Sequence record: DRR723986_591 | DNA length: 42,543 bases | Strand: one strand, 5' to 3' | Shown here: in pieces, positions 2,821 through 39,684 of the stretch | Numbering within the stretch: the first letter of the stretch is position 1 | How the letters are laid out: each line of letters begins with the position of its first letter | Position numbers and translations under genes: made by a program | Notes under the pieces: model-generated | Seen by the model: the letters and a program-made list of their open reading frames with translations, nothing else | Database searches by the model: none | What the model was told of the DNA's origin: nothing

Positions 2821-2842
2821 GCGGTTCTGCTGACGAGGTCAA

Positions 2843-3541
2843 TCAATCGCCCTTGCTGGCACTAGTGGCACCGGATTGATCTGGTGTGTAGTGCTGGTGA
2901 CGAACGATTTCCCCACTGACCATGTAGATGACATCTTCGGCAACACTGGTCGCATGGTCAGCAATTTGTTCTAGGTGGCGGGATGCGGAAAAACAATGCA
3001 GTGCGGGCTCGACCCAATCTTGCCGTCGCTGCATCAGCTCCACTAGCTCAGCGATGACGCGAACATTTGTGTCGTCGACGTGGTCATCGGAGGCGATTAC
3101 TTCAAACGCGAGTTGGGTGTCAAAGTTGACGAACGAGTTGAGTGCCCGGCGCACCATGTCGACAACTTCTGCGGCCATGCTTTCGATGGCTGATGGAATC
3201 GGAAATCCATCGGTAGCAACAAAGCTACTGGCGCGTTCGGCCACGTTGCACGCGAGGTCCGCGATCCGCTCCAGGTCGTTGTTTACTTTCATCATCGTGG
3301 TCAGTCGTCTTAGGTCGGCGGCCACGGGTTGGTGAAGCGCCAACATCTTGAGGCATTCCTCTTCGATGCGGACTTCTGTCTTGTCAATTTTCTCGTCCGC
3401 TTCGATGACCTGCTGAGCGGCTTTGTTGTCGTCATTCATGAGCGACTTCACCGCCAAATTGATCATCTCCTCCACTTCGCCACTGAGTGCCAGTAGGCGG
3501 TGGTAAGCTTCTTCTAGGTCGTTCTTCAAGTGCTTGGACAT
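2843..3541 (-). CDS. phoU: Phosphate signalling complex protein PhoU
   Basis: Two PhoU repeats: LALHQPVAADLR...DLERIADLACNVAE and HLEQIADHATSVAEDVIYMVSG. Start placed at ATG 3541 (MSKHL). Confidence 0.93.
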   Translation of the reverse strand: MSKHLKNDLEEAYHRLLALSGEVEEMINLAVKSLMNDDNKAAQQVIEADEKIDKTEVRIEEECLKMLALHQPVAADLRRLTTMMKVNNDLERIADLACNVAERASSFVATDGFPIPSAIESMAAEVVDMVRRALNSFVNFDTQLAFEVIASDDHVDDTNVRVIAELVELMQRRQDWVEPALHCFSASRHLEQIADHATSVAEDVIYMVSGEIVRHQHYTPDQSGATSASKGD

Positions 3542-3768
3542 TCCGTTGCTACCCCTCAGAAATCCGATTGCTGGAACATGGTGAGTCCGCTCGGTCAGTA
3601 CGCTCATGGCGGTGAACGAGGCAGAATCTAATGTTTTTAGCAGGTTTCGCGACACGGAGATAGCGACGGGAAAGCGGAGCAAGGAAGCTCGGGGCCGACC
3701 ATGGCCGCGAGCGATGCGACAAGTTTTAGTCGGAGGAGGCCCTGGACCGGAGCTTCAAAGCGAGAAGT

Positions 3769-5484
3769 TTATGTTAAGAATGCCCCACTCGACTTTGCCG
3801 GTAGGACAACCTGGAATTCACTTCCTTCACCGGGATGGCTGCTGGCTGAGACGCTGCCGCCTAGAGCGGTCGTCAGATGTTTCACAATGGAAAGCCCGAG
3901 CCCGGTTCCACCCGTTTCGCTCGAACGGTCCTTTTCGGCACGATAAAACCGCTCAAAGATGCGTTCTAGGTCGTCGGGATGGATGCCGATCCCGTTGTCC
4001 TGGACAACCAGCTCGATCGCGGCCTCATCGTCGACGGTGGTTCTTCGAATCCGCAAGCGAACCGTTCCGCCACTGGATGTGTAGCGGACGGCGTTGGAGA
4101 GCAGGTTGCTGGCGATTGTCTGGAACCCGTTGATATCGCTCTCGAGCATAAGGTCGTCCGTGCAGTCCGCGACCAGCTCAATACGCTTGGTTCGCGCGAC
4201 GGCTCCTGCCGCGGCGAGGCATGGTTCTAGGGCAGTGCTCGCGGAGAACTTTTCAATCCGCATGCCGCTGCCCGACTCCACGCGTGAAAGCTGCAGCATG
4301 CCCTGCACCAGTCCGTCGATTCGATCCACTTGTCCGATGATATTTGCCAGGAAGCTCTCAGCGGCCGGGCGGTCATCCATCGCGCCAAGCTGGAGGGTTT
4401 CGGCGTAGGCGCGAATGGCCGCCAGCGGCGTCTTTAGTTCGTGAGAAGCGTTGGAGATGAAGTCTTTCCGTATGGCTTCGATCCGTTTCAGTAACGATTC
4501 ATCTCGCGTCGTAACAAGAACGCCGAAGCTGTCGCCGATGGGAAGCGGCCGGGCGGTGATGCGTAACCATTTGCTGGTACGGTGGATTTGTACAACCTCC
4601 TCACGCGGGGAGCCAGTGCCCAAAACAGACGTGACTGACTCGTGCACCTGGGGCGTTCGGACGACTTCTAAGATCGGGCGCAGCAGGTAGTTTTCCGAAG
4701 CAACGGTGACGTGTTCGTCCAGCGTTCGATTTGCCAGGATGACCCTAGACTGGTCGTCGACGGCCAAGACCCCTTCGCGCAGGTTTCGCAAAACGAGTTC
4801 GTTCCGCTGTACGGATTCATGCAACTCGGCAAGTGAGCGATTGACCTTTTCGCCGACCGTGTTCAACGTTGTGGCGAGGTTGCTGGGGCCAGCCAAATTA
4901 TCGAGCTGGATGGGGCCGGGCTTTGGGCGTTGCTGAATCGCCTGCACCCAAGGAGCGATTTCTTCGTGGATGTGTCGTTGTTGCCATCTCCACCGCAGGG
5001 CTACACCACCAACAATTGCAAGGCCACAGAGTCCCAGCGTCAGGCAAAGAGTGTTCCAAGTCCCCAGGGGCGTTGTCCGCAGCGGCCGCGTTAGTTGGAT
5101 GGTGGTCAGCCGCGTTTCGGTTTGATCGGGGGTCGCGCGGCTGCGGAGAAGTTCCAGGTCGACAAGCTTGCTTGATACAAGTCGGTCCCCTTGGCGTTTT
5201 ATGTCCGACCAGTCTGCTTGCCTGCGCTGCTTGGGCAAATCAAGGGTACTTGTTGGAAGCACATCGACTTCCATCGCGGTTTCGATGCCTGTCCATTCCG
5301 AGGATGCATCCGGTGTAGCCGGCCAAGCGCGGACGCTCAACAGTTGCTCGACGATTAGAGCGTCTTTCGCGAAACGGCTGACCTGTCGTTCAGTGTTGTG
5401 GCGGATGAACAGAGATCTGCCAGCAAACCAACTGCCAGTGGTGATGAAGATCCACAGTAGGGCTAGCAGTGTGAATGATCTCAT
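3769..5484 (-). CDS. phoR: PhoR-like sensor histidine kinase (2 TM, PAS, HisKA, HATPase)
   Basis: Two hydrophobic helices, PAS-like LREGVLAVD, H-box FISNASHELKTPL, NLLSNAVRYT, DNGIGI, IFERFYR and GGTGLGLSIVKH. Start moved to ATG 5484 because the longer ORF runs into the tRNA. Confidence 0.85.
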   Translation of the reverse strand: MRSFTLLALLWIFITTGSWFAGRSLFIRHNTERQVSRFAKDALIVEQLLSVRAWPATPDASSEWTGIETAMEVDVLPTSTLDLPKQRRQADWSDIKRQGDRLVSSKLVDLELLRSRATPDQTETRLTTIQLTRPLRTTPLGTWNTLCLTLGLCGLAIVGGVALRWRWQQRHIHEEIAPWVQAIQQRPKPGPIQLDNLAGPSNLATTLNTVGEKVNRSLAELHESVQRNELVLRNLREGVLAVDDQSRVILANRTLDEHVTVASENYLLRPILEVVRTPQVHESVTSVLGTGSPREEVVQIHRTSKWLRITARPLPIGDSFGVLVTTRDESLLKRIEAIRKDFISNASHELKTPLAAIRAYAETLQLGAMDDRPAAESFLANIIGQVDRIDGLVQGMLQLSRVESGSGMRIEKFSASTALEPCLAAAGAVARTKRIELVADCTDDLMLESDINGFQTIASNLLSNAVRYTSSGGTVRLRIRRTTVDDEAAIELVVQDNGIGIHPDDLERIFERFYRAEKDRSSETGGTGLGLSIVKHLTTALGGSVSASSHPGEGSEFQVVLPAKSSGAFLT

Positions 5485-5609
5485 TGCGGAATCCGAAATC
5501 GCTAAACGATTGGAAAGTCGGATGGTCGTCACGTCGAAGGGGACGAAATTGCCGGCCAAAGAGTGGGTCGGCGCTAGAGGCCGGGCGTGCAAATGAGAGA
5601 GAAGCGGAG

Positions 5610-5682
<73 letters not shown>

Positions 5683-6636: not shown

Positions 6637-8268
6637 ATGAATCGACGACTGACCATGTGTCTTTGGCTGTTGAGCGCCCTGCTGCCACTTCTCGCAGCCC
6701 GCGGACTACACGCGCAGTACACGCCAAAGCACCCCAAAGTCCAGGCGATGGTCGATCGGGGTGTGAAGTACTTGAATACGGCCAAGGATTCACCTACGGG
6801 TGGATTCGGATTGGGGAGTCGAGCTTTAGTTGGTTATGCGTTGCTCAAGGCCACCGGTGATGCTGAACTGCCTAAGGTCAAAAGCGGCATCCAAGCAGCC
6901 CAACGCCTCGCCCAGTCGTTGGCCTCGTATCGCGAAGTTGGCGAAAGCAAAATCATGTACGAGGTCTGCGTTGCCGCGGTCCTTTTAGCTTCCGTGGATG
7001 TGGCCATGTATCAGCCGGAGCTTGTCACCATCCGCGAATGGCTGCTCGAGGTGCAAAAGCCTCACGGTGGGTTTGGCTATCTAGAGAAGCCTACTGGAGA
7101 CACGTCCCAGGTGCAGTATGTAATGCTCGCCTTTTGGACGATGGCTCAGGCGGGGATGGACATTCCCGATTCTGCGGTTGAACGGTGTGTCAATTACATT
7201 CGTGCGACCATGGACCCAAGTGGAAGTTGGGGTTACCAGGGTGTAATCAGCACTGGAGGACTCGTCAGGCAGGACAAGCCAACTAAGTCGCTCGGAACCG
7301 CCGGGCTCGGTGCTCTCATCATCGGCTCAGATATCCTCCAATTATTCGGTGCTCGGAAAACTCCTGAGGATGAAGCTGAGGGGATTCCGGATGCACTCAA
7401 ACGCGTGGATCTGTTGCTCGCACGGCGTGAACGCGGGCAGACTTCTCTCAAGAAGGGCGATGTAGAGCCGATGATCAATCGCGCGCGACAGTATCAAAAT
7501 ACGTCGCGATTCTCTGGTGCCACCTGGTACTACTACTGGCGATACTCACAGGAACGCTACGAGAGTTTCTACGAAATCGTACAGGGCAAGCAGGAGAAAA
7601 GTCCGGCTTGGTACAACGCAGGCGTGGAAGATCTAGCAAAGAAACAGGATGAAAATGGGGCCTGGGGAAAGACCGGGCTGCGAGATTTCTATCCGGCCGA
7701 TGTATGCACCGCGTTCTCGGTTCTGTTCCTGATTCGCTCTACACAGAAGTCCATCGGAACACTGGATGAGGGATTGGCCTTCGGGGGTTATGGTTTGCCC
7801 ACCGACCTATCAAATATCAAGATGGTTGGAGGGAAGATCGTTAGTGCTGAGGAGCAGTCGGTTGAAGACATGCTGAAAATGTTGGAGAGCGACGAGGTCT
7901 CGGGAATCGAGCTTTCGCTCATTCCCAAGAATCTGAAACTTCACAAGGATCCGGCACAACGCAAGGAACAGGTTGCAAGGCTGTCGCGATTGCTGGTTAG
8001 TCAAGACGCTATTGCTCGCCGGAAGGCAGCTCAGCTACTCGGTCGAAGCGACGATTTGAGTGTCGTGCCGGACTTGATTTTCGCACTGACTGACCCTGAC
8101 TCAGAAGTGCCTGCCCTGGCCGAAGAGAGCCTGCGCCTGATCAGTCGAAAGCTCGATGTCCGAAACCTTGATCAGAACCCCGATTCGGAACAGCGTGCGA
8201 AGGCCGTTAAGTTCTGGAAATCGTGGTACCTCGGCCTTCGGCCTGATTACATTTTTATCGAGCGTTAA
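6637..8268 (+). CDS. Exported prenyltransferase/squalene-oxidase-repeat (alpha/alpha toroid) protein with C-terminal HEAT/PBS-lyase repeats
   Basis: Signal peptide ending GLHA-Q; QW-like repeats QKPHGGFGY, MDPSGSWGY and QDENGAWG; motifs GDTSQVQY and YYYWRYSQERY; HEAT-like ARRKAAQLLG...VVPDLIFALTDPDSEV...AEESLRLI. Confidence 0.8.
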   Translation: MNRRLTMCLWLLSALLPLLAARGLHAQYTPKHPKVQAMVDRGVKYLNTAKDSPTGGFGLGSRALVGYALLKATGDAELPKVKSGIQAAQRLAQSLASYREVGESKIMYEVCVAAVLLASVDVAMYQPELVTIREWLLEVQKPHGGFGYLEKPTGDTSQVQYVMLAFWTMAQAGMDIPDSAVERCVNYIRATMDPSGSWGYQGVISTGGLVRQDKPTKSLGTAGLGALIIGSDILQLFGARKTPEDEAEGIPDALKRVDLLLARRERGQTSLKKGDVEPMINRARQYQNTSRFSGATWYYYWRYSQERYESFYEIVQGKQEKSPAWYNAGVEDLAKKQDENGAWGKTGLRDFYPADVCTAFSVLFLIRSTQKSIGTLDEGLAFGGYGLPTDLSNIKMVGGKIVSAEEQSVEDMLKMLESDEVSGIELSLIPKNLKLHKDPAQRKEQVARLSRLLVSQDAIARRKAAQLLGRSDDLSVVPDLIFALTDPDSEVPALAEESLRLISRKLDVRNLDQNPDSEQRAKAVKFWKSWYLGLRPDYIFIER

Positions 8269-8350
8269 TCGCAATTGCTTTCCGCTAGTGTTGGAAGTTG
8301 AACCACTTGGTCCGCAACCGTCATGCGGGCCCTAAAAAGGTTGTAGATGA

Positions 8351-9247
8351 ATGAGTAGTGCTAGCTCGTCTCCAAGAGGAACCAATAGCCTCAAGACGCA
8401 GAAGGTAGACGTTGTCGCAAGTCTGCTAATGGCGTTTCTCATGGTGCTGGGCCTGATCGTCTCGCTGTTGTTCGTCGTTTGGCTAACGCAGACATTCACC
8501 TGGAGTCCAGGTCGGCTTGAGATCGAGGACGAACGGATACCTGGCCGCGGCGATCACGCACCTGGTTTTGAAACCGACGTTGAGCCGCCTGGAGCAGAGG
8601 ACATTCAAGAACTCACCGAGCCAACTCTTGAGCAGGCTTTGGAGGCGGTGACCGAGGCTGCCACGAGCGTAGCGGCTTCGCTGAACGCGGTGCCCTCGGA
8701 TGCAATGGCTAGCTCTAATTCCAATGGTCGGGGTGACAAGCGTCCGCCGGGGCCTTTGGGAGATGGAGATGATATCGTCCCGAGGTACGAGCGGTGGCAA
8801 TTGAAGTTCCAGGCAAAGGGGCTCAAGCCTTACGCGAAACAGTTGGACTTCTACAAAATCGAGCTAGCCGCCGTTGGTGGTCGTTCCAAAATGGTTGACT
8901 ACGCATTCAACGTCGGGACCAGCGCGCAGAAGCGACAAGGGTCCAGCGCCGCAGAGAACAAGCTCGGGCGATTGCATTTCATGTGGCGTAAGGATGGCCC
9001 GCTGAAGCAGTTTGATCGGCAACTTCTTGGCCAGGCTGGCGTTCAAACGCAGGGGCGAATCATGATGAAGTTCATCCCCAAAGAGTTGGAGGACGAATTA
9101 GCTCAGGTGGAAAAGCGGTACTTCTTAGACGCCGGCAAGACAACAATCAAGCAGGTTGCCAAGACCGTTTTTGAATCGCGTGCGGCCGCCAGCGGCGGTT
9201 ATGAATTCGTTGTGATCGAACAATTGTATCGCGAACCGAAGGGGTAA
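8351..9247 (+). CDS. Single-pass membrane protein (TM, acidic/Pro-rich linker, about 150-aa C-terminal domain); paralog 1
   Basis: TM VASLLMAFLMVLGLIVSLLFVVWL, linker ETDVEPPGAEDIQELTEPTLEQ, and a C-terminal domain strongly similar to 9306-10190. Confidence 0.8.
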   Translation: MSSASSSPRGTNSLKTQKVDVVASLLMAFLMVLGLIVSLLFVVWLTQTFTWSPGRLEIEDERIPGRGDHAPGFETDVEPPGAEDIQELTEPTLEQALEAVTEAATSVAASLNAVPSDAMASSNSNGRGDKRPPGPLGDGDDIVPRYERWQLKFQAKGLKPYAKQLDFYKIELAAVGGRSKMVDYAFNVGTSAQKRQGSSAAENKLGRLHFMWRKDGPLKQFDRQLLGQAGVQTQGRIMMKFIPKELEDELAQVEKRYFLDAGKTTIKQVAKTVFESRAAASGGYEFVVIEQLYREPKG

Positions 9248-9305
9248 GCCGGGCGACTAGACGGCCCCTTGTGATTCGCACAGGCAGTATTTCGAAAGAG
9301 TTGTC

Positions 9306-10190
9306 ATGACTGAAGCAGGTCTCAATCCGCGCGGCATCGGTCAACTCAAGACGCACCGCGCCGACATTGTTGCCAGTCTCCTGGCCGCAATGTTGATTGT
9401 TGCTGGGGGAGTCGTCGCGTTCCTGTTCTTACTCTGGCTGACGTCCGGGGTTGCGAAACTACCTACCGGAAGCGGCGCTGTCGTTGTTCTTATCCCCGGT
9501 GCCGAGGGCGACTCGCGAGTTGCAGTGGATAAGGTGCTTCCGCCTGGTCTCGATGAGGCTGTGGAGCTAGCCGAGCCCTCGCTCCAGCAATCTCTCGTGA
9601 CGATCAGCGGTGCCGTCGAAACGGTTGCATCTTCCCCATTGCAAGACGGTTCTTCTCAGTTGCAGGACGCTCGTGCTGGCGACATGTCTGGGGATCAGCG
9701 ACTACCTGGACCAGCAGGGAGCCTTGGCGGAGGTGTTCCGAGGTACGAACGTTGGCAGCTAAAGTTTCAGGCCGAAAGTCAGGAGCAGTACGCAGAACAA
9801 CTAGACTATTATGCTATCGAGTTGGGTTGCATCGGCGGTGATTCTAGGCAAGTAGATTACGCATCTGGTTTCAGTCAGGATCCTAAGAAACGCTCTGGTA
9901 GCAGTGCGGAGGAAAATGAGCGTGGCCGTCTCTATTTCCTTTGGCGGGGCGGTGTAGCCCTTGAGAAGTTCGATCGTCGCCTGCTTGAAGAAGCGGGTGT
10001 AAAGACGACGAGCCGCTTCGTGGTGAAATTCATTTCCAAGTCGCTTGAAGCAAAGCTGGCTGAAATTGAACAACGGCACTGCGTGTCCAACGGGAAGACA
10101 GTCCAGCAGGTTGCCAAGACAGTCTTTCAGTCTCGTAAGGTGGCTGGCGGCTACTCGTTTGTGGTCGTGGGACAGGTTTACCGGCAATGA
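9306..10190 (+). CDS. Single-pass membrane protein; paralog 2
   Basis: Shares LKT..D.VASLL, PPG, VPRYERWQLKFQA, QLD.Y.IEL, VDYA, GSSA.EN..GRL.F.WR, FDR.LL..AGV.T, QVAKTVF.SR and GGY.FVV..Q.YR with 8351-9247. Confidence 0.8.
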   Translation: MTEAGLNPRGIGQLKTHRADIVASLLAAMLIVAGGVVAFLFLLWLTSGVAKLPTGSGAVVVLIPGAEGDSRVAVDKVLPPGLDEAVELAEPSLQQSLVTISGAVETVASSPLQDGSSQLQDARAGDMSGDQRLPGPAGSLGGGVPRYERWQLKFQAESQEQYAEQLDYYAIELGCIGGDSRQVDYASGFSQDPKKRSGSSAEENERGRLYFLWRGGVALEKFDRRLLEEAGVKTTSRFVVKFISKSLEAKLAEIEQRHCVSNGKTVQQVAKTVFQSRKVAGGYSFVVVGQVYRQ

Positions 10191-10491
10191 ACTTCCGCCT
10201 GTTTGCAATCCCTAGTCTGGGCAGTTGTACCCCAATCACCTCCTTTGAGGCGCGGTGCCAATGCATCCCGGAGAATTCTAGCTAGATCGCCCTCAGAGCC
10301 TGCAAGAATCGGCTCACTCTGGTTATCATGGGGTTCTTGTCAAAAAATTTGAATCAGTAAATTTGGACTGATTCGACGGTCGCCACGGCCGCTCACGTTG
10401 GCGATTCGCTTGCTGCATTTGTTTTGAAGTTGTGGATGTATCCATCGGATCCCTTCACCCCCTGAGTACTTCTGCAAAGGAAACCCTGTAA

Positions 10492-11136
10492 ATGCCTCAG
10501 TCGGTTTACGATTGGATTGGCCTTGCCGATTACTGTGCCCTTGCATCAGTTGCGCTTTTTGGTGCGTTTTGTTGTTATCTCGTGTGGACGCGTGTTGGGC
10601 AGAAATGGTTCAAGTCGGAGGAAGAGCAAAATGCCTTCCTGGATTCGATCGAACCGGACTTGCTAGCCGGCAATTTCGAAGCCGTTGAAGAGGCTTGCAG
10701 CTCTGATCCACGTGCGGTTCCCATGTTGATCAATATTGGTGTCATGAACCATGAGATGGGTTTCGCGAAAGTGAAGCACCTGCTCATGGAACGGTTCCAG
10801 CGTGATGTGTTGGCTGATTTGGAAACAAACATCAGTTGGGTGACAACCGTTATCAAGACTGCTCCGATGCTGGGGCTGTTCGGGACGGTGACCGGGATGA
10901 TCGGTGCGTTTGCGACTTTGGCGGCAGCCCAAACCGTAGAAGCGACTGCCTTGGCCAAGGACATTAATGTTGCTCTGTACACAACCGCGATCGGCCTTTG
11001 CATTGCGATCCCGCTGGTGATGGCTCTCAACGCGGTGAACAACCGCATTCGCCATATGGAAGAACTGGTTGGCTCCGGTGTAACTCGATTCCTGGAAGGG
11101 TTTCGAGTGGGGCTGGCAAAGCGACGCGGTGGGTAG
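10492..11136 (+). CDS. exbB: MotA/TolQ/ExbB proton-channel family protein
   Basis: TAPMLGLFGTVTGMIGAF and ALYTTAIGLCIAIP TM signatures plus an N-terminal TM. ExbB cannot be separated from TolQ by eye. Confidence 0.9.
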   Translation: MPQSVYDWIGLADYCALASVALFGAFCCYLVWTRVGQKWFKSEEEQNAFLDSIEPDLLAGNFEAVEEACSSDPRAVPMLINIGVMNHEMGFAKVKHLLMERFQRDVLADLETNISWVTTVIKTAPMLGLFGTVTGMIGAFATLAAAQTVEATALAKDINVALYTTAIGLCIAIPLVMALNAVNNRIRHMEELVGSGVTRFLEGFRVGLAKRRGG

Positions 11137-11228
11137 ATTCATCCGCTCATTGCTTTGGGCACCGGGCATCAAGTTTTGTGGTTCGGTGTAACACGTCGTT
11201 TGAGTGTCTCTGAAGTCGAGGCTGAGAA

Positions 11229-11720
11229 TTGTCCAACGCTGCAACAGAAACAGAGCTCGAGCTTGGCGAAGTCGTCGAAGAAGACTTCGTGAAGCCGCGT
11301 GGTGCTGATAACGATGACGAAATGGATATCACTCCTATGATTGATATCACATTTCTGTTGCTTATCTTCTTCCTCGTGACATCCAAGATGAACGAGCAGG
11401 CTCCTGTAAACTTGCCAAAGGCTAGGCACGGGAATGTTGTGCCCGACCAGGATGCAATTGTCATCGTCATGAAACGTGGCAGTGGCGATGAGGCTGAGGT
11501 GACTAAGGGAGATGGCGGCGGCTTTTCGCAGAATATTGAACAGCAGAATGCAGAATTGGCGGAGTACATTCAGCAGGAGTTCGATGCCGGGAAGTTGAAG
11601 GTCGTAATTCGCGCCGAAGAGTCGGTGCGGCAAGGTGAGATTAGCCGGGTGAGCGAAGCAATTGGTCAATCAATGCCCGAAGGTGAGCTGATTAATTTCG
11701 CCACCATGGAGCAGAATTGA
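11229..11720 (+). CDS. exbD: ExbD/TolR family protein
   Basis: MDITPMIDITFLLLIFFLV with the conserved TM Asp, VNLPKA and VVIRAE. TTG start. Confidence 0.9.
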   Translation: MSNAATETELELGEVVEEDFVKPRGADNDDEMDITPMIDITFLLLIFFLVTSKMNEQAPVNLPKARHGNVVPDQDAIVIVMKRGSGDEAEVTKGDGGGFSQNIEQQNAELAEYIQQEFDAGKLKVVIRAEESVRQGEISRVSEAIGQSMPEGELINFATMEQN

Positions 11721-11836
11721 CGTGTTGAAACCGATCCTTGGCCACTCGTAGATGAATCAATTCCCTCGCCACGCGCTGTAGAGTGTTTGGCCTTTTTAGC
11801 TGGCGTTTGCGGTCCGATTGAAGTTCGGGAACAAGT

Positions 11837-12562
11837 ATGTCCGTCAAATTTCAATGTTCATCTTGCAAGGTCGTCAAGGCCATCAATCCGAGGATGCTCG
11901 GTCGCGAGATTGCATGCCCTGACTGCGGTAGCCCCGTGCAGTTGCCCACTCAGGAGCAAATCGACGCTGCCCATCGTCGTCGCGAGCAGAAGCAGACGGC
12001 CGCAAATCTGCAAGCGGCATTGGCGGCTGCCGCACAGCGCGCCGAAGCTAAATCGAAACCTCCGCAGCCTCACGGCGATCCGGACGATGAGAAGCAGTTG
12101 GCTGCAGCCGAGGCTACTTTCACCAAGCCCAAGCCACCCAGCGGTGAGGACATGGACATGACTCCGATGGTCGATGTCACGTTCCTGCTGCTGATTTTCT
12201 TTATGGTGACCGCGTCGTTTAGTGTGCAGAAGAGTGTTTCCCGTCCGCCGCCGCGCGAAGAGGATCCCAGCACCAATGCGGTTCAGAAAGAAATAGAAGA
12301 AGAGAAAGATACCGTCGAAATTCAGATCGACGAATTCAACGCTTACAACGTAGTGACCAGCGAATGGGATCGCATTGTTGCTAGTAAGCAGGACTTGATT
12401 GTCGCTCTTGAGGAAGCTCGATCTTCCAATGGGCAGGCGGGCAAGATTGTCATCAAGGCTCATCAAGACTGTATTCATGCCTCGGTGATTGCCGCGCTAG
12501 ATGCCGGTCGTGAAGCGGAGTTTGAGAGCTTCGAAGTCAGTACGGTAGAAGAATTAGAATGA
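11837..12562 (+). CDS. exbD: ExbD/TolR family protein with N-terminal Zn-ribbon
   Basis: N-terminal CSSC-x17-CPDC, Ala/Gln-rich helical linker, then MDMTPMVDVTFLLLIFFMV and IVIKAH...VIAALDAGREA. Confidence 0.88.
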   Translation: MSVKFQCSSCKVVKAINPRMLGREIACPDCGSPVQLPTQEQIDAAHRRREQKQTAANLQAALAAAAQRAEAKSKPPQPHGDPDDEKQLAAAEATFTKPKPPSGEDMDMTPMVDVTFLLLIFFMVTASFSVQKSVSRPPPREEDPSTNAVQKEIEEEKDTVEIQIDEFNAYNVVTSEWDRIVASKQDLIVALEEARSSNGQAGKIVIKAHQDCIHASVIAALDAGREAEFESFEVSTVEELE

Positions 12563-12648
12563 TTTAGCCCAAGCTCACTGCTCCGGTGGGCAAATCGGCT
12601 GTCGAGATCCATCCTGGAATTTGACTCAACGAAGAGTAAAGTTTTTCA

Positions 12649-15600
12649 ATGTCGAAGGCTCAAAATTTTATCGATCTCCTCGTTTCGCAGGATCTTCTTG
12701 CGCCAGAAATCGTGGAGGAATTGACCCGGCAAGTTGCCGAGAGTAAAGGGAAGCTTTCACCTGAACTGCTCGCAAAATTGCTGGTCGACAATGGGCACCT
12801 GACGAAGTTTCAGGCTACCAAGTTGGTGTCGCAGATTCGTGACGGGGACGGGGCCCCCGCTGACGGTGTAAGCGACGTTGAAGATGAACTTGGGCTTGCA
12901 CCCGAAGATGGCGAGCCGGCAGCCGAAGATGGTGTCGCTGCAATCATCATCGACGAGCCTGGCGACGCCGACGAAGCGGAGGTTGTCGAAGTCGTCGATG
13001 CGGCTGAAATCGTTGACGCAGAAGAGGAAGAGATTTTTGACGTCGCTGCCGCCTCAGGATTCGATAGCGTCGCTGAAGAGGATACCTCGGAACTGGGAGC
13101 CGATGTTCCTCGACGACCCGTCAGGCCATCTACGGTTGAAGCAAAGTCCAGTCCGTGGGATTCGTTCCGGATTCTCGGCGTCGCGTGCATCTTGGTGCTC
13201 GTGGGGATTGCCGGGTTCTTTCTGATTCGAGTCTTCTTGTTGGGCAACGCGGACAAGTTGGTCGAGCAAGCGGATGCAAGCTACGAGCAACGCTCCTACG
13301 AAACCGCTTACCAGGCCTACGATGACTTCATTGTTAATTTTCCTACTGACGAACGCCAGTCGTATGCGAAGGTGCGTTCCGCGCTGGCTAAATTCCGAGA
13401 AGCGGCGGAGAAGGTTCCTGATCCAGTAAAGGGATTAGAGACAGCCCTTGAGGTTTTGCCCGACATTGCTTCCGAGGATGCTCTTCGCGATGAAGGGCAA
13501 GCCAACGACTTGGCCGGAGCCCTCATTGGACTTGCCAGCAAGTTTACCGAAAGAGCCGACGATGAATCTGAGATTCCACAGCGAAAGCTGCTGATGGGAG
13601 AAATGGATAAGCTGCTGGAGATGATCAACAATCCGCAGTTTGTCGCTAACGCTCAGCGGGAGATTCAGCGGCCAACGATTATGCGAATCATGGAAGATCG
13701 CCAGCGGATCCTGCGTGAGATCGCACGTGACGAAGAACTGGCTAAGGCGCTTGTCGAGATTGACGGGAAGTTGGGAGAGAAAGATGTGATGGGCGCGTAC
13801 AGCGTCCGAGAAGAATTGATCGCCGAGTATCCACTACTGAAAACGAGCAGCGAACTGCTCACGCGAATCCAGCAAGCAACCGGTATCCAAAAGACGCTGG
13901 TAGTGCCCAGCTCGATCACACCTCGAATGATCGACAATGCGATCGAGGCAGAGAAGGGCGGACGTATTGTAGTTTCCAACCGCTTCGGTGAAAAAGCGCC
14001 GTCGCTGGCCGGTAGGGTTGTAACCGTCCGTGCTAAGGGATCAATTTACGGATTGGACGGCGAGACAGGCGGCGTCCTATGGCGGCAGTTCGTTGGTCGT
14101 GGGCTGGATAGTTACCCAGTTGCACTTGGCGAAGGGCCCGGGGTCGACTTTGCACTAGCCGATCCAGCCACCGGTGTTGTCTCGCGAGTAGCCGCCAAGT
14201 CGGGCGATATCGTCTGGAGTGTTGACATTGGCACCCCAATCAATGTGCCCGTCTACGAAAGCGAAAATCTATTCATATCAACAAGCGATGGATCGGTGAT
14301 CTGTCTTGATGCTGCTGGCGGTCAGACCCGGTGGGCGACCAAGTTACCGCAGGCAACTCCAGTCAGTCCTACAGTTGCATTCGGCCGTTCGCAGTTGTAC
14401 ATCCCCGGTGAACACAGCAACCTTTACGTGCTTTCTCGCGAGAATGGTGAATGTGAACAAGTTCACTACTTGGATCACCAAGCCGGAGCTCTCTCGGTTG
14501 CACCGGAGTTGTTTCAAGGGCAGTTGTTTGTTTTTGATAACATCAGTTCGAGCGTCTCCAACATTCGTTTCTTGGACATTGATAGTTCGGGCACGGTAAC
14601 AGGTGAAACGCAGGCACACGTACAAATTGCGGGCAACATTGTCGTTTCTCCGACCATCAGCGGTCGCCGGCTCTTTGTTCAGTCTGACTTGTCGGCGATC
14701 ATTGTCCTCGACGTCGAACTCAATTCAGAAGCGGAACGCGTCTCGGTGATCGGACGCGTTCCCGAAAGCGCCTCGCAGCCAACTCGCTCTTGGGCTGTCG
14801 CCGACCGCAGTAAACTCTGGGTCGCCGACGAGCGCCTGACGCAGTTCGATCTACAGGTCACATCCCAGCGCCTGGATCGGATATCCACGGTTCACGATGG
14901 CGATGTCTTTACGGGACCGCTTCAGAAATTTGATGACATTATCGTTCACTCACGACGCTTGCGAGGCAATCGTGGCGTTCGAGTTTCCGCTTTCGATACC
15001 GATCGCGAGCGTGAACTTTGGTCCGTTGATCTCGGCGTGCCTGTCGTGATGGTCCGGCCTGCCGGCGGCAATCAGTTTGACGTCGTAAACAGTGGCGGCA
15101 TGTACTTTTCGTTCGATGGATCCAAACGAATCTTCAAAACGGCTGACTTGAATCCAGGCGGTGGCAAGCCTCGAATGACCTTCGATGCACCGGTAACGCT
15201 CGACGACGGTCGTGCCGTTATGATTAACCGATCGCGCAGCAACCAATTGCTCGTTTACTCGCCTGACGCACCCAAGTTGCAGATCCTTAGCACCAGTTTG
15301 GGACAGGCAAACCTGAGTTCAGATCCTGTTGCGGTTGGGAACCTAGTCGGCATTGGCCTGGACAACGGTCAATTTGTCTTGGTTGATCCGACCACTGGAG
15401 TGCGTGCTGGTGCACCCTACCAGCCGGCTCTCGAGCCCGGCAGCGATAAAGTCGTTTGGAACCGTGGCGTTTACTTGAAAGACCAGCAAACGTTGATTGT
15501 CGCCAACGACCGTCTAAAACTCGCCCGACTTGGTGCGTCTGGTGACTTGAGAAAACTGAATGAAGTCGAATTGCAGTCACCACTGCTAGGACCTCTTTGC

Positions 15601-16056
15601 TCTGTCGGCAATGCGATCTGTGCTGTAGCGGACACCGGTGGTAGTGAAAGTCTCTTGTACTTCAATTCAAACTCGCTTGCCGCTGCTGGTAGTGTCCCGA
15701 TCGAAGGCAACGTGGTCGCTGGGCCCTTTGCTGTTGATGGCGGATGCTTGGTGCAGACCGACCGGAAACTGATGATGATCGCCAATGACCAATCGGTTGC
15801 ATGGGCCGTGGACTTCCCGCGTTCAGCGATTAGTTCGCCACCTTTGCAGGCCCAAGGGAAACTGGTTCTCACAAATCGTGTCGGGCAGCTCTTCGTCATC
15901 GACGCCGGTTCTGGTGACATAATTGGAGACTCGGACACTCGTCAAGCATTCACATCGCAGCCGATCCCAGCACGAGGTGGTGTGTTGATTGGTAGTGACG
16001 AAGGAGCAATGATGGCGTTGCCGTTGCCAACGAGTGTATCCTCAGGAGGTCAGTAG
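12649..16056 (+). CDS. Large single-pass protein: cytoplasmic helical domain, acidic linker, TM, TPR/BamD-like helices and multiple PQQ/BamB-like beta-propeller repeats
   Basis: TM ILGVACILVLVGIAGFFLI; TPR-like ADASYEQRSYETAYQAYDDFIVNFP; propeller blades IYGLDGETGGVLWR, AKSGDIVWSVDIG, CLDAAGGQTRW and FVIDAGSGDII. Confidence 0.8.
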   Translation: MSKAQNFIDLLVSQDLLAPEIVEELTRQVAESKGKLSPELLAKLLVDNGHLTKFQATKLVSQIRDGDGAPADGVSDVEDELGLAPEDGEPAAEDGVAAIIIDEPGDADEAEVVEVVDAAEIVDAEEEEIFDVAAASGFDSVAEEDTSELGADVPRRPVRPSTVEAKSSPWDSFRILGVACILVLVGIAGFFLIRVFLLGNADKLVEQADASYEQRSYETAYQAYDDFIVNFPTDERQSYAKVRSALAKFREAAEKVPDPVKGLETALEVLPDIASEDALRDEGQANDLAGALIGLASKFTERADDESEIPQRKLLMGEMDKLLEMINNPQFVANAQREIQRPTIMRIMEDRQRILREIARDEELAKALVEIDGKLGEKDVMGAYSVREELIAEYPLLKTSSELLTRIQQATGIQKTLVVPSSITPRMIDNAIEAEKGGRIVVSNRFGEKAPSLAGRVVTVRAKGSIYGLDGETGGVLWRQFVGRGLDSYPVALGEGPGVDFALADPATGVVSRVAAKSGDIVWSVDIGTPINVPVYESENLFISTSDGSVICLDAAGGQTRWATKLPQATPVSPTVAFGRSQLYIPGEHSNLYVLSRENGECEQVHYLDHQAGALSVAPELFQGQLFVFDNISSSVSNIRFLDIDSSGTVTGETQAHVQIAGNIVVSPTISGRRLFVQSDLSAIIVLDVELNSEAERVSVIGRVPESASQPTRSWAVADRSKLWVADERLTQFDLQVTSQRLDRISTVHDGDVFTGPLQKFDDIIVHSRRLRGNRGVRVSAFDTDRERELWSVDLGVPVVMVRPAGGNQFDVVNSGGMYFSFDGSKRIFKTADLNPGGGKPRMTFDAPVTLDDGRAVMINRSRSNQLLVYSPDAPKLQILSTSLGQANLSSDPVAVGNLVGIGLDNGQFVLVDPTTGVRAGAPYQPALEPGSDKVVWNRGVYLKDQQTLIVANDRLKLARLGASGDLRKLNEVELQSPLLGPLCSVGNAICAVADTGGSESLLYFNSNSLAAAGSVPIEGNVVAGPFAVDGGCLVQTDRKLMMIANDQSVAWAVDFPRSAISSPPLQAQGKLVLTNRVGQLFVIDAGSGDIIGDSDTRQAFTSQPIPARGGVLIGSDEGAMMALPLPTSVSSGGQ

Positions 16057-16058
16057 GA

Positions 16059-18347
16059 ATGGCGATAACAAATTGCCGAGGTTTACTGGTTCTGCTGTTT
16101 GCTCTTGGATTATCGCTTGTCGGTAGCAATCTTGGTGCGCAGGGGATCAAGGTTGAGGAACCTGAATTAATCGACCAAGAGCCCTTTGATCTGCTGGTCC
16201 TGAAAACGGGCGAGAGCGTCAAGGTGTTTCCATTCGGCTTTCGCACACAGCCACGAGACGTTCGGGAGAACGACCGTCTGAGCTTGGTGCTGGTGCGATT
16301 TCCCGAGCGAAAATACGAAGTGCTTTGGCGCGACGTCGAGCGCATCGACTTCTATGAACAACGCATCCGCAAGCAAGCGGAAGAGCGGATGGCTAAGAAG
16401 GACTTTATCGGAGCCTTCCAGAATCTCTCGTTCCTTCTCAACGCATACCCGGAAATGGAGGGACTTGAGTCGCTTCATCGCGAGTTCTTGCTGCTGAGTG
16501 CCGCGGATCGATTACGAGCTGGCGGCGCCGCCCAAACGCTCTCGGCCCTTGAGTCGCTTCGAGAGATGGCTCCAAGTTACCGCGAGTCGACTGTCTCAAC
16601 CGGGCTGTCTCGATCAGCCGATGCTCTCATCTTGGAATATCAGGCGGCGGGCGATCTAACCAGCGCGAAGAAGATCTTAGCTCGTGTTGAGAAAGAAGTG
16701 GATCCAAGATTGCCGGTCGTTTCCAAATGGAAAGGGCGCCTGGATACGATGGCTCGGGCCAAAATGCAGCTTGCCAAGGACTTGATGCGTCAGGGCAAGT
16801 TTCGTGAGGCTCGTAAGGCAGCAGTCGACATGTTGGGGATTCTCCCCGATTTTGAAGAAGGTCAAAATCTCATCAGCGAAATCAATCGGATCCATCCGAT
16901 GGTGCGTGTTGGTGTTATGCAGCGAAGTGGAGACCTGGATCCATCGAGTTTGGTGAACTGGCCAGCACGCAGGGCCGGTGCTTTGGTCGCCGAACCCTTG
17001 ATGAGGTTCGAAAAAACGGGTTCAGAGGGCGGCGAGTACGATTTCGCGCTTGGTTCTTTTCGATTCACTGACGACCGACGCCAGCTTTTTCTTAGTCTGG
17101 ATTCAGATCAACTTCAGCGACTCGATGCATTCGGGCTAGCCCAAGATCTTTTGCGTCGAGCAATTCCGGGGGACAGCCTGTACGATTCCTCCTGGGCCGC
17201 ATTGGTCGAATCAGTTGAAGTTGCCAGTTCGACGCAGGTTGTTGTGTCACTTCGGCAACCAAACGTTCTCCCGCAGGCATTGATGCAGTGGGTTCTGCGG
17301 GACGCCGATGGCGATTTCACTTTAAAATCTAGGTTCATCGTCAGCAGTTCTGACGAGCGCGAGACGTCTTTCAAACTTGCCGACAAGAGCGGTGCCAGCG
17401 GAGTTCCAGTCGAAGTGGTAGAGGTCTTCTACGACGACCCTAAGGAAGCCGTAAACGATCTCTTGCGGGGTGACATCGATGTGCTGGATCAGGTTTATCC
17501 GGCTGATGCCAAACGTTTGGCCAATGACCAACGTCTGCGAATTGGCAGTTACTCGTTGCCTTCGACGCATATGCTGATTCCCGTCTCCGACGATCCATTC
17601 TTGAAGAGTGCGAAGTTTCGACGCGCGCTGATGTTTGCGACCAATCGTCAAGCGATGCTTCAAGGAGAGATCTTAAATAGCGACGACGAACGCGATGGGA
17701 GATTGATCAGTGGCCCGTTTCCGATCGGTGACGGACGAAATGACTTGCTTGCCTATGCCTATGATCCAGAGATTCCGCCAATTGACTACAGCCCACCGCT
17801 TGCTCGGTTATTGATCGTCATGGCTGAGAATGAGGTGGTCAGTGCTGCGGCGCGAAAACGCGAGCCAGAACCAGAGCGCAGGAAGTTGATTGTCGGCTGC
17901 CCCGACTACGAATTCGCCAGAGTTGCCGTTCAGGGCATGATCCAGCAATGGGCCAACATTGGAGTAGAAGTCGAGATGGAGATCCTCCCGCCAGGCCGAC
18001 TGGAGAAGGAAGGTGTCGAGCTCGACCTGCTGTACGTTGTAGCGGCTCTTTGGGAACCAGTCAGCGATATCGAACGTCTGCTTGGCAGCAACGGCGTGGC
18101 CGAGACGGACGATCCGTACGTTGTTCAGGGGCTCGAAGAACTACGTAATGCATCCAACTGGCGCGAAGTTCGAGAAGCGCTTCAGAAACTACACCAGCTC
18201 GTAGATTACCATTTGCCGGTGATGCCACTGTGGCAAGTGAAGGATCAGTTTGTCGTCAACAAATACGTTGAGGGCATTCGCGACGAGCCACTTTCGCTAT
18301 ACGAGAATATTTCTCGCTGGCGAGTGAATCAATCGCAGGGCAACTAA
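16059..18347 (+). CDS. Exported protein with N-terminal TPR-like region and C-terminal ABC solute-binding protein family 5-like domain
   Basis: Signal peptide; TPR-like KDFIGAFQNLSFLLNAYP and GKFREARKAA; SBP5-like AVNDLLRGDIDVL, LKSAKFRRALMFATNRQAM, YSPPLARLL, IQQWANIGVEVEME and YHLPVMPLW. Starts 2 nt after the upstream stop. Confidence 0.75.
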   Translation: MAITNCRGLLVLLFALGLSLVGSNLGAQGIKVEEPELIDQEPFDLLVLKTGESVKVFPFGFRTQPRDVRENDRLSLVLVRFPERKYEVLWRDVERIDFYEQRIRKQAEERMAKKDFIGAFQNLSFLLNAYPEMEGLESLHREFLLLSAADRLRAGGAAQTLSALESLREMAPSYRESTVSTGLSRSADALILEYQAAGDLTSAKKILARVEKEVDPRLPVVSKWKGRLDTMARAKMQLAKDLMRQGKFREARKAAVDMLGILPDFEEGQNLISEINRIHPMVRVGVMQRSGDLDPSSLVNWPARRAGALVAEPLMRFEKTGSEGGEYDFALGSFRFTDDRRQLFLSLDSDQLQRLDAFGLAQDLLRRAIPGDSLYDSSWAALVESVEVASSTQVVVSLRQPNVLPQALMQWVLRDADGDFTLKSRFIVSSSDERETSFKLADKSGASGVPVEVVEVFYDDPKEAVNDLLRGDIDVLDQVYPADAKRLANDQRLRIGSYSLPSTHMLIPVSDDPFLKSAKFRRALMFATNRQAMLQGEILNSDDERDGRLISGPFPIGDGRNDLLAYAYDPEIPPIDYSPPLARLLIVMAENEVVSAAARKREPEPERRKLIVGCPDYEFARVAVQGMIQQWANIGVEVEMEILPPGRLEKEGVELDLLYVVAALWEPVSDIERLLGSNGVAETDDPYVVQGLEELRNASNWREVREALQKLHQLVDYHLPVMPLWQVKDQFVVNKYVEGIRDEPLSLYENISRWRVNQSQGN

Positions 18348-18428
18348 CCTCAGCCAAGATTGAATCCGCCGTAAACAGAGAACGCAGCCTGAGGCTTGGA
18401 TCGCCTGCGCCTAACCTAACGCAACACT

Positions 18429-20450
18429 ATGTTCAGAAGTATGTTCCGAAATATTTGCCAGTTAGCGGTTTGCGGCATCGCGATTTTGGTGTCTGCGAAT
18501 GCTTTTGCGCAGAACGAGGTCGAGATCTTTGAATATGAGCCTTACCAGGTTCATATCGGCTATACATTTGACGCATCGGTAGACGTCGCGCCGGAGCTAC
18601 AGCAGCAGTTTCTCGATGGACTTGCCCAAGAGTTGAAGAGGACATTCCGCTCGGCATGGCGGACGTCAATGGCTCCGCTACCGCAGTCCCTCGAATCGCA
18701 GGTCGTGCGCAATCTGGCTCGAGTCGAATCCAAGCAATTGCTTGAGGATGATTTCGTTTTAGTCGTTTCATCAACGCAGGATGCTACAAAGAATCTTCGC
18801 TCGGCCGAAATCGCGCTCGACGCCATTTCTGACTTTGCCATCCTTGATAGCGACTATCGGCTGCTGACCATGTTGGCGGCCAGCTATCCGGATTCTGAGT
18901 TGGCCTCGCAGCTAATTTCGAAGGCGAAGACCGCCGATTTTGCCGTCAAGAACGTTGGTGAGCAGATCCCGGCTGCAATCATGCGCAAAAGCTCCACGTC
19001 GCAGTTGCCTGCAACCGGGGCTCGCGTCATGCCCATCTACTTGCCCTGGCAAACAGGAACGCTGATGCGGCAGTACGACAAATTGTTCTTCATAGTTATC
19101 GGGCAACACGGCGATGACTTCTTCGTCAGAGCGAAGGAAATTGATTGCCCGATGTTCTTTGACGGCCCGATGTTCTCAGGGACATTTCCCAGTTGGGGTT
19201 CCGGGCCGCGGATTGCATCGACGGTCATAACAAGGGCCTTTGCACCAATCGCTCGCGTTGAGCGTTCTACGAGGACAACCGCTGAACTGCTATTGAAAGC
19301 TGGCGGGTTAATCATCGATGACGAGAATCCAGCCAAGATACACGTCGGCGAAGTTGTGCATCCTGTTGTTCGGAAAGACGATCGCAATGGCATGCCGGTT
19401 CTTCTGAAGGCGCAGCCATGGACTTACGCGGCGATATCTGATGTGGATCGGGCTGAATTGCAAGCCAACGTTTACTCCTTTTCAAGCAGTTCGGGTGGTT
19501 CCGGCTTGGGCGGTCGAGCGAATCGGCGCACGAAGCGACTTGTGTTTCGAGTCAGGCCGCAGGTAGAGGAAACGGCCATGCAGATTGTCGTGGCCCGCGA
19601 TGGGACACCGCAGGCGGGGTGTTTCGTCTACGAGCGAGATTTGATCACCGACAAATTCGACTATATCGGGCGGACGGACTGGCGTGGACAGATTGTGATA
19701 CCCGTGCCAGACGATTATGGAACGTTCCTTCCGAATGATATTAAGCAGAAGCGTCTGGCCGCACTACGCGAAAAACAAATCGCTGAGAAGAACGGCGAGG
19801 TAACTGACAGCGAGACAACCGACGACGAGGCAGGTGGAGACGCCGCAAAGTCTGATGCTGAAAGCGACACCGCGGAGGCAACTTCTGATACAGACGCAAC
19901 GGTTAGCGAGAAAGTTGACGACTACGCTGGTGACACGTCAAAGTGGGAGATTCCGCTCAAGTCACCTCTGAAGCAGATCTACGTAAAGAGTGGTAACTTT
20001 GTCATGGCAAAGTTGTCGATGGTTCCCGGTCTGAAGGACGTAGAAGTCGCTGAACTGCTGGATGATCGGCTTCGGCTCGAGATTGAGGCCTTTGTTAAGG
20101 GGTACCAAAACGAGGTCATTGAGCTCATCGGTCTCCGCCGATTGCTGGCAGCTCGCGTCAAACTGCTAGCCGACAAGGGGAAGATTGACGAGGCAAAGCA
20201 AGAGCTGATTCGCCTGCGTTCGCTGGCCGATTACACGCAAATGGCCGATGGCTTGGTAAAGATCCGCCGACGTTTCCTAGGCGACAATCAGAATGATCTA
20301 CCCGGATACACGCGATTGCAAATTGATCGGATGTTTGCGACAACACGTGAGCTTCTACAAAAGTACTTGCAGGATTCACTTGTAGACGACGCCGTTGAAG
20401 CCGTTGAGGATGCTCAACGCAATCCGGCCACACCCAGCGATGCTGGTTAG
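18429..20450 (+). CDS. Exported hypothetical protein (673 aa)
   Basis: Signal peptide ending ANAFA-Q, long co-oriented ORF, internal acidic low-complexity segment and helical C-terminus. Confidence 0.8.
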   Translation: MFRSMFRNICQLAVCGIAILVSANAFAQNEVEIFEYEPYQVHIGYTFDASVDVAPELQQQFLDGLAQELKRTFRSAWRTSMAPLPQSLESQVVRNLARVESKQLLEDDFVLVVSSTQDATKNLRSAEIALDAISDFAILDSDYRLLTMLAASYPDSELASQLISKAKTADFAVKNVGEQIPAAIMRKSSTSQLPATGARVMPIYLPWQTGTLMRQYDKLFFIVIGQHGDDFFVRAKEIDCPMFFDGPMFSGTFPSWGSGPRIASTVITRAFAPIARVERSTRTTAELLLKAGGLIIDDENPAKIHVGEVVHPVVRKDDRNGMPVLLKAQPWTYAAISDVDRAELQANVYSFSSSSGGSGLGGRANRRTKRLVFRVRPQVEETAMQIVVARDGTPQAGCFVYERDLITDKFDYIGRTDWRGQIVIPVPDDYGTFLPNDIKQKRLAALREKQIAEKNGEVTDSETTDDEAGGDAAKSDAESDTAEATSDTDATVSEKVDDYAGDTSKWEIPLKSPLKQIYVKSGNFVMAKLSMVPGLKDVEVAELLDDRLRLEIEAFVKGYQNEVIELIGLRRLLAARVKLLADKGKIDEAKQELIRLRSLADYTQMADGLVKIRRRFLGDNQNDLPGYTRLQIDRMFATTRELLQKYLQDSLVDDAVEAVEDAQRNPATPSDAG

Positions 20451-39577: not shown

Positions 39578-39684
39578 GCACTTTGTCGCACCCAGAGTGG
39601 TTCGTTTTCAAGCATCAGGGCTATTCTGTTGTCGCATCTGTAAAGAATGCTTTCCGGTGTGGTTTCTTGTTAGGGAGTCGATTC

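Follow-up and report, generated by a model that had tools for sequence, protein, structure and literature searches.

A conserved ExbB/ExbD gene cluster of Pirellulales as a candidate envelope machine with a putative new force transducer

Motors of the 5:2 ExbB/ExbD type power TonB-dependent import, the envelope upkeep by Tol-Pal, and gliding. The DNA stretch DRR723986_591 (42,543 nt; hereafter the window, whose positions serve as coordinates) contains genes for one ExbB/TolQ-type and two ExbD/TolR-type proteins within a run of nine open reading frames (ORFs), here called g1 to g9, and the locus raises the question of what this motor drives. A preliminary description had proposed that all nine genes encode an undescribed envelope machine powered by the proton-motive force (PMF). 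All nine ORFs lie on the plus strand with successive gaps of 82, 58, 301, 92, 116, 86, 2 and 81 nt, in agreement with the layout described at the outset (nine co-oriented genes with gaps of 2–116 nt and a single gap of 301 nt). As judged by a Kyte-Doolittle scan, g1, g8 and g9 have an N-terminal hydrophobic segment that fits a signal peptide, g2, g3, g5, g6 and g7 have one membrane segment each, and ExbB has three hydrophobic regions; the statement that every product is exported or membrane-anchored is thus borne out by hydrophobic segments in all nine. Pfam searches of the nine proteins and of 19 flanking ORFs of at least 150 amino acids (aa) found no Plug/TonB-dependent receptor, TolB, OmpA/Pal or ATP-binding cassette (ABC) permease or ATPase domain, again as had been described.

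The answer that we favour, with a probability of about one half, is that the cluster encodes an undescribed, conserved envelope machine of Pirellulales, in which an ExbB/ExbD stator drives g2 and whose role is likely Tol-Pal-like. On this reading, the cluster encodes a variant of the force-transducing machines of the Ton/Tol type, probably with a Tol-like role, and could take the place of Tol-Pal or TonB systems where these are missing. In the mechanism we propose, ExbB and the two ExbD proteins would form a proton-driven stator of the 5:2 type, to which g2 would dock through its acidic membrane helix. The linker of g2 would then pass conformational work on to the periplasmic domain, as TonB and TolA do, albeit with unrelated parts. 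In the periplasm, g1, g8 and g9 would be held by the g7 protein, which would also take in cytoplasmic signals. The machine as a whole would serve Tol-Pal-like envelope upkeep by linking the inner membrane with the outer membrane or the wall as cells grow and bud. Searches of the literature on planctomycete ExbB/ExbD/TonB, TolQ/TolR and uptake, and on Rhodopirellula and Pirellulaceae, returned no description of the cluster, so that the word 'undescribed' holds for the literature searched.

To assess the conservation of the cluster, we carried out a profile-guided scan with one genome per species, which yielded 80 related loci, 46 of which (hereafter the long loci) extended at least 10 kb downstream of g2. 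Here and below, family, order and phylum refer to the taxa of G001, in which locus L033 lies, and genome-wide statements rest on relatives. The order g2-ExbB-ExbD1-ExbD2-g7-g8-g9 was kept in 37 of the 46 long loci, with g1 upstream in 29 of these 37; among the 63 loci having at least 2 kb of upstream sequence, 51 had a g1 homolog upstream of g2. Three of the long loci possessed all seven genes with the motor relocated (ExbB ahead of g2 in two of them, the trio inverted upstream in the third), two had g1-g2-g7-g8-g9 with no motor nearby, two had no detectable g9, and two had neither g8 nor g9. The g2-family profile matched 120 of 121 family genomes, 68 of 101 order genomes and 16 of 301 phylum genomes. 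When 20 kb around each of 14 weaker phylum matches were fetched, ten contained g2-g4-g5-g6-g7-g8 in this order, at 20–43% protein identity; one of the others was ordered up to the end of its contig, one had g2-g7-g8-g9 without the motor, and two had g2 alone. The g9 profile matched exactly the same 16 of the 301 phylum genomes as the g2 profile, both being missing from the other 285 (285/285), and in two phylum genomes with an isolated g2 the g9 gene sits on another contig. Descent from a common ancestor, as among close relatives, would by no means suffice to explain the joint occurrence of g2 and g9 and the distant synteny. The gene-neighbourhood check called for by the preliminary description thus turned out in favour of synteny, both in the long loci and in the distant ones, and because the arrangement recurs in related genomes, it is not a product of chance. 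Cultured carriers exist, since the g7 ortholog of Aureliella helgolandensis was among the matches.

The third gene does not belong to the conserved set. The g2 and g3 proteins are 47% identical, and a second full-length copy of the g2 type was present in six of the 80 related loci. The closest relative, L001, in which g2 is 89% identical, has no g3, and G001 has a second g2-like copy adjoining its intact g2 (C1:5538222-5538666) that is broken by TAA stops and represents a decayed duplicate. Five of the six second copies grouped with g3 on long branches in a FastTree phylogeny, calculated without branch support, which suggests one old duplication of g2 that has mostly been lost since. Because g3 is a patchy duplicate, absent or decayed in close relatives, the usual core comprises eight genes, and the nine-gene machine of the preliminary description has to be reduced by one. 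The cluster is, in this form, a conserved eight-gene unit of Pirellulales (Table 1).

Table 1. Genes of the cluster in the window, with their predicted products and the basis of each assignment
Gene	Position	Strand	Product	Basis
g1	6637..8268	+	exported; weak alpha/alpha-toroid (prenyltransferase/squalene-cyclase-like) N-part and C-terminal HEAT-type repeats	Pfam below cut-offs, PDB alphaRep, hydropathy
g2	8351..9247	+	single-pass inner-membrane protein, new family; putative force transducer	model, alignment; no Pfam/NCBIfam match
g3	9306..10190	+	diverged tandem paralog of g2, outside the usual cluster	47% identity
g4	10492..11136	+	ExbB/TolQ-type stator protein (predicted proton channel)	PF01618 87.3 bits
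g5	11229..11720	+	ExbD/TolR-type protein 1 (ExbD1)	PF02472 64.8 bits; D39
g6	11837..12562	+	ExbD/TolR-type protein 2 (ExbD2), with cytoplasmic N-terminal CxxC...CPxC zinc ribbon	PF02472 75.9 bits
g7	12649..16056	+	single-pass scaffold: cytoplasmic domain, transmembrane helix, TPR/BamD-like region, two PQQ/BamB-like propeller regions	PQQ_2 89.8 bits
g8	16059..18347	+	exported; N-terminal helical/TPR part and C-terminal SBP5-like domain	SBP_bac_5 50.3 bits
g9	18429..20450	+	exported; family seen only in Planctomycetota	no Pfam/NCBIfam/PDB match

In E. coli ExbB, the proton path is lined by two threonines; in the ExbB proteins of the cluster, residues of the helix 2/helix 3 region, including T132 and T165, were invariant in all 45 sequences compared. 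The membrane aspartates of ExbD1 (D39) and ExbD2 (D113) were each invariant in 33 of 33 sequences. Together with the Pfam scores in Table 1, these results uphold the earlier description of an intact ExbB accompanied by two ExbD proteins that keep the aspartate of the transmembrane (TM) helix. The equivalog models of NCBIfam for TolQ, ExbB, TolR and ExbD all scored far below their cut-offs (g4, for instance, reached 69 bits against a cut-off of 221 for TolQ and 54 bits against 206 for ExbB), and the motor can for this reason be assigned neither to Ton nor to Tol. The four cysteines of the ExbD2 zinc ribbon (C7, C10, C27 and C30) were invariant in 33 of 33 sequences, distant loci included. As a separate observation, the zinc-ribbon motif of the ExbD2 N-terminus was also matched at the N-terminus of numerous ORFs (120–1100 aa) that are unrelated in other respects, with dozens of matches per genome in G450, G472, G486, G502 and G515 at profile positions 1 to about 50; this type of zinc ribbon looks like a widespread cytoplasmic module in Pirellulales.

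We then asked what kind of protein g2 is. Neither g2 nor g3 had a match in Pfam or NCBIfam, including TonB_C (PF03544), and no Pfam vWA match was obtained with g2. Its family comprises 994 clusters at 50% identity (E 0.001 or better); among the 120 matches listed for g2, all source names shown were 'hypothetical protein', and the ESM Atlas returned unnamed Planctomycetota clusters only. The whole-protein model (predicted local distance difference test score, pLDDT, of 84) has a short N-terminus, a TM helix at residues 18–48, a linker of about 95 residues with a helix at 93–112, and an alpha/beta domain at 145–298; this periplasmic domain of about 150 residues, modelled alone, reached a pLDDT of 94.8. 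Position 20, at the cytoplasmic start of the TM helix, was acidic in all 64 sequences aligned (D in 56 and E in 8), and lies within the motif (S/T)x(Y/F)Dx(V/A)x(S/G). The SHLS histidine has no counterpart, as no column of His was found at helix positions 12–49 across the 64 sequences.

The fold of the g2 domain likewise gave no link to proteins of known structure. In a fold search against 48,161 chains, none reached Z 5 (best Z, 3.9), Foldseek had no match that attained E 0.001, its TM-scores being near 0.2, and a sequence/profile search of the PDB gave a best E of 0.23. The top Foldseek rows were GHKL ATPase domains, at E of about 0.1 and a TM-score of about 0.2, and were not trusted. When the complete g2 model was searched, the matches listed were taken up by the membrane helix. 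TonB, TolA, vWA and ExbD chains were missing from the fold-search rows of the g2 domain, where absence from a list does not exclude remote kinship. Homology to ExbD/TolR was considered and rejected, as the probability assigned by hhalign was 1.4% for the ExbD1 profile and 1.9% for that of ExbD2. A search for g2 proteins extended by fusion found none, which is weak evidence. A complex prediction for the g2 homodimer scored 0.00 (mark, 0.32), a non-answer that says nothing for or against binding. As far as sequence comparison goes, g2 is a new family of membrane-anchored proteins, and since it has no SHLS histidine, no TonB_C and no match to a solved fold, its likeness to TonB and TolA is one of layout only. 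Of the 'two TonB-like paralogs' in the preliminary description, the paralogy and the TonB-type layout therefore stood, whereas the likeness extended to none of these three features.

If g2 docks to the stator through its acidic helix, the acidic motif and the motor should go together. To examine this relationship, we fetched six divergent loci from order members that matched the g2 profile over the C-terminal domain only. None of the six had ExbB or ExbD1 matches; in five, g8 together with g7 and/or g9 lay beside the g2-like gene, accompanied by g1 in four of the five. The g2-like proteins of these loci had arginines before the TM helix and no acidic motif, in four of the four that were clearly readable. 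An ExbD2 covering the zinc ribbon as well as the ExbD portion was absent from all five genomes tested among the motorless lineages. We also identified five genomes having an acidic g2 with no motor adjacent to it: a full-length zinc-ribbon ExbD2 was encoded elsewhere in three, one cut by a contig end was found in the fourth, and none was found in the fifth. ExbB and ExbD1 adjoined the unlinked zinc-ribbon ExbD2 in three of four such loci fetched. In the fourth, L134 (G210:C3:573507-577208), ExbD1, a zinc-ribbon ExbD2 and a g7-like gene stood together with no ExbB match, and g2 and g9 were dispersed. Taken together, the acidic g2 motif appears to go with the zinc-ribbon ExbD2, which is the pattern that g2-stator coupling would predict. 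The proposal of a dedicated motor acting on something other than a standard Ton or Tol target is thus to be modified: no such target is encoded in the cluster, as had been noted, but the motor is separable, and some lineages do without it.

The other exported or anchored products include recognizable modules of the periplasm and the cytoplasm. For g1, the toroid and HEAT models of Pfam all scored below their cut-offs (23.4 against 26.1, 22.9 against 26.5 and 21.0 against 27.7), and residues 444–505 matched alphaRep proteins of the PDB as HEAT-type repeats at E 2e-7; the HEAT half of the 'toroid-HEAT' assignment made earlier thus has backing from the PDB, while the toroid half remains weak. The g7 protein starts with about 170 cytoplasmic residues, followed by a membrane helix at about 175–193, a periplasmic helical/TPR region and two propeller regions; beside the PQQ_2 match, the matches to YfiO/BamD and TPR in Pfam and NCBIfam were weak. 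Its N-terminal domain (window 12649-13176) is highly conserved in the family of the window and has no Pfam match. All of the 95 matches to it also contained PQQ_2, so that the domain is limited to this architecture, and their source names were 'PQQ-binding-like' or 'BamB family'. In the distant clusters (L101–L112), an FHA domain takes the place of this N-terminal domain, scoring above the Pfam cut-off in five of five g7 proteins. The FHA domain suggests that g7 may receive a phosphorylation signal in the distant lineages, and, together with the ExbD2 zinc ribbon, it points to control from the cytoplasm.

The SBP_bac_5 match of g8 (cut-off, 32.4 bits) covers residues 453–677 and profile positions 151–363 of 368. 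Beyond it, g8 had weak TPR matches and weak PDB matches to AgaA/AccA (E 4e-4), and the window proteins scanned included no permease or ATPase that could serve as its ABC partner. As for g9, Pfam, NCBIfam and the PDB had nothing to offer, Pfam searches with its relatives were also empty, and the ESM Atlas gave unnamed Planctomycetota clusters only. The orphan SBP5 protein and the exported protein of no recognizable family, as g8 and g9 had been characterized at first, thus both withstood these searches.

To find out whether the classical systems accompany the cluster, we searched five genomes carrying it for Plug, TonB_C, TolB_N and Pal, and three of these genomes for the MotA/ExbB family. Neither Plug nor TonB_C was found in three of the five, G001 among them, and TonB_C was present in one. 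TolB_N (PF04052) was found in none of the five, and none had a Pal (TIGR02802) match over the cut-off, the matches being weak OmpA-like ones. In most of the genomes searched, classical Ton or Tol clients were thus not found. The MotA/ExbB family had 7, 11 and 7 matches in G001, G002 and G003, respectively; such carriers therefore run several motors of this kind for few or no classical clients, and in G001 several stators lack a known client. According to the part of a 2025 survey of force transducers that bears on this point, pal is not present in Planctomycetes, as judged from one Aquisphaera genome (PMC12204202). A Tol-like housekeeping role is favoured because the cluster belongs to the core of the family, usually in one copy, and because Tol-Pal parts were not found; its distribution speaks for housekeeping in Pirellulales. 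With the g2 family in only 16 of the 301 phylum genomes sampled, a general role in budding does not fit. A microarray study of R. baltica reported, in the portion concerned, that an exbB and an exbD, which may or may not be those of the cluster, are salt-induced (PMC2754498).

A comparison with Tol-Pal (TolQ-TolR-TolA-TolB-Pal-CpoB) shows both the extent and the limits of the analogy. Both systems have a channel protein of the ExbB/TolQ family with partners of the ExbD/TolR family that carry the membrane Asp, a protein built of anchor, linker and globular domain, and periplasmic beta-propeller and TPR parts; the cluster is near-universal in its clade, as expected of a housekeeping system. The cluster differs in having two distinct ExbD proteins, one with a zinc ribbon, and in its propellers, which are of the PQQ/BamB type and fused to a membrane anchor, whereas TolB is free. 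Moreover, g2 has no detectable relation to TolA and no SHLS histidine, although a remote relation is not excluded by the fold lists, and g1, g8 and g9 have no Tol counterpart.

Another precedent comes from Williams-Jones et al. (2025), whose survey includes transducers of the vWA type encoded beside TPR-tolQ-tolR-tolR in the Planctomycetes-Verrucomicrobia-Chlamydiae (PVC) group, Planctomycetes included (PMC12204202). As in our cluster, an anchored protein that is neither TonB nor TolA is found there beside one tolQ-like, two different tolR-like and a TPR gene. The vWA transducers carry, in the section of that study describing them, either the SHLS histidine or a pore helix like that of ExbD (PMC12204202), whereas g2 has no Pfam vWA domain and an acidic residue instead of the His, and the gene order and partners are different. 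A bolder version of our proposal is that g2 represents a third independent class of PMF transducer, after TonB/TolA and vWA, which would dock to ExbB-ExbD1-ExbD2 through an acidic residue in place of the SHLS histidine, end in a periplasmic domain of no known fold, and do the job of Tol-Pal together with g1 and g7–g9 in the budding, FtsZ-less Pirellulales, under cytoplasmic control via the zinc ribbon and the input domain of g7. We put this version forward tentatively, as an idea that is less likely to be right than wrong.

Among the alternatives, Ton-like import comes first, and we consider it unlikely. The motor and g2 would in this case open an outer-membrane channel encoded elsewhere, g8 would capture an incoming peptide or oligosaccharide in the enlarged periplasm, and processing of the cargo would fall to g1 and g9. 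SBP_bac_5 is indeed a ligand-binding fold, and Ton clusters with extra parts are known. The Vibrio TonB2 system is TtpB-TtpC-ExbB-ExbD-TonB-TtpD, with the TPR protein TtpD2 needed besides TtpB2 (PMC6957404), and in Riemerella, a gene encoding a phosphate-binding protein comes after an exbB-exbD-exbD-tonB2 operon (PMC4446302). Like our cluster, these Ton systems of Vibrio and Bacteroidota have motor genes that share an operon with genes for a TPR protein or a solute-binding protein, or that include two exbD genes, as far as these accounts describe them (PMC6957404, PMC4446302). Uptake of macromolecules into the planctomycete periplasm has also been reported, and the relevant passage of a 2025 review calls the players involved unknown (PMC12673574). 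The differences are that g2 has no TonB_C and that the accessory proteins belong to other families. The Plug receptor to be expected for import was not found in three of the five carrier genomes; there is no channel gene in the cluster and no ABC importer nearby that could take over from g8. The presence in 120 of 121 family genomes, usually in a single copy, moreover suits a core function rather than a nutrient-specific one.

Alternatively, g1-g2-g7-g8-g9 might be a force-free scaffold on which the outer membrane or the wall is assembled, and into which the motor trio was inserted later to modulate or localize it. This explanation, which strikes us as improbable, derives its strength from the motorless arrangements: ExbB and ExbD1 are lacking from the module in the six divergent loci, and no motor is adjacent in L021, L028, L035 and L108. 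In addition, g7 matches PQQ_2 of the BamB type and, weakly, BamD/YfiO, and all 16 genomes with g2 also have g9, irrespective of linkage to the motor. The BamB-like propellers are, however, generic interaction domains, and a position between g2 and g7, where the motor lies in 37 of the 46 long loci, would be an unusual place for an unrelated insertion. An acidic g2 is, moreover, accompanied by the trio with the zinc-ribbon ExbD2 in all motor-linked loci and in four of the five unlinked genomes.

In Myxococcus, the AglRQS-Glt system uses one TolQ-like and two TolR-like proteins to drive an envelope complex of neither the Ton nor the Tol kind, with TPR proteins and control from the cytoplasm. By analogy with it, the cluster could encode a motor for surface movement, adhesion or the handling of fibres that is controlled from the cytoplasm. 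The comparison would extend to the stoichiometry of one ExbB with two different ExbD proteins, and fitting cytoplasmic additions would be the ExbD2 zinc ribbon and the input domain of g7, be it FHA or another. The cluster has no outer-membrane parts, neither Glt-type components nor adhesins, and we know of no gliding in Pirellulales; we regard such a role as very improbable. That the genes are neighbours by chance or shared ancestry and do not work together, as one might argue because most loci come from one family in which gene order is kept by descent, is scarcely credible, given that the order persists at 20–43% protein identity, that g2 is accompanied by g9 in 16 of 16 genomes, two in which they are unlinked included, while 285 of 285 have neither, and that the features of g2 and ExbD2 change together.

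The proposal of a stator-driven, Tol-like machine has to be weighed against several points that speak against it. The Tol-like role is drawn from analogy and from the absence of other systems, and Plug (PF07715) was present in two of the five carrier genomes; another of the 7–11 MotA/ExbB paralogs per genome could be the Tol equivalent. The putative contact between g2 and the motor is deduced from sequence patterns. These patterns come from few, mutually related genomes, some of which are incomplete metagenome bins, and an acidic residue at the cytoplasmic end of a helix could serve topology or some other contact. Since there are lineages that keep g1, the variant g2, g7, g8 and g9 without a motor, the periplasmic module evidently need not have a stator of its own. 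Finally, the cluster encodes no part that would bind to the outer membrane or wall (beta-barrel, lipoprotein or OmpA-like protein) and on which the force could act.

The sequence context is that of a Pirellulaceae-like planctomycete, as indicated by the flanks of the window, which include a DUF1501 gene, and by the closest loci, which are Pirellulaceae metagenome bins. Scans of the cluster for promoters and terminators gave 7 and 20 hits, respectively, as compared with 7.7 and 17.9 in shuffled sequence, and thus no excess; Rfam had a single match in the window, a tRNA gene that is not part of the cluster. On its upstream side and pointing away from the cluster, genes for PhoU, a PAS histidine kinase and an OmpR-type response regulator occupy positions 2044-5667 on the minus strand. 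The longest kinase ORF (3769-5667) begins within the tRNA gene (5610-5682, minus strand; 72.4 bits in Rfam), and the true start of the histidine kinase must therefore lie further in. Related loci (L002, L005, L011–L013, L016, L017, L033, L036 and L076) have the same neighbours upstream of g1, the kinase in at least ten loci and PhoU in seven, which hints at shared or phosphate-linked regulation of the cluster. Elsewhere in the window, three overlapping or adjacent ORFs of 197, 231 and 340 aa at 38331-40488 on the plus strand have no Pfam match.

The cluster bears on how planctomycetes hold together their outer membrane and an unusually large periplasm, how they bud, and how they take up large molecules. 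It provides a concrete set of eight genes that is near-universal in a major, ecologically abundant family, and the conserved acidic residue of g2 is a sharp target for point mutation in a putative new transducer. If the coupling of g2 to the stator is true, it would widen the range of ways in which the proton-motive force is carried across the periplasm.

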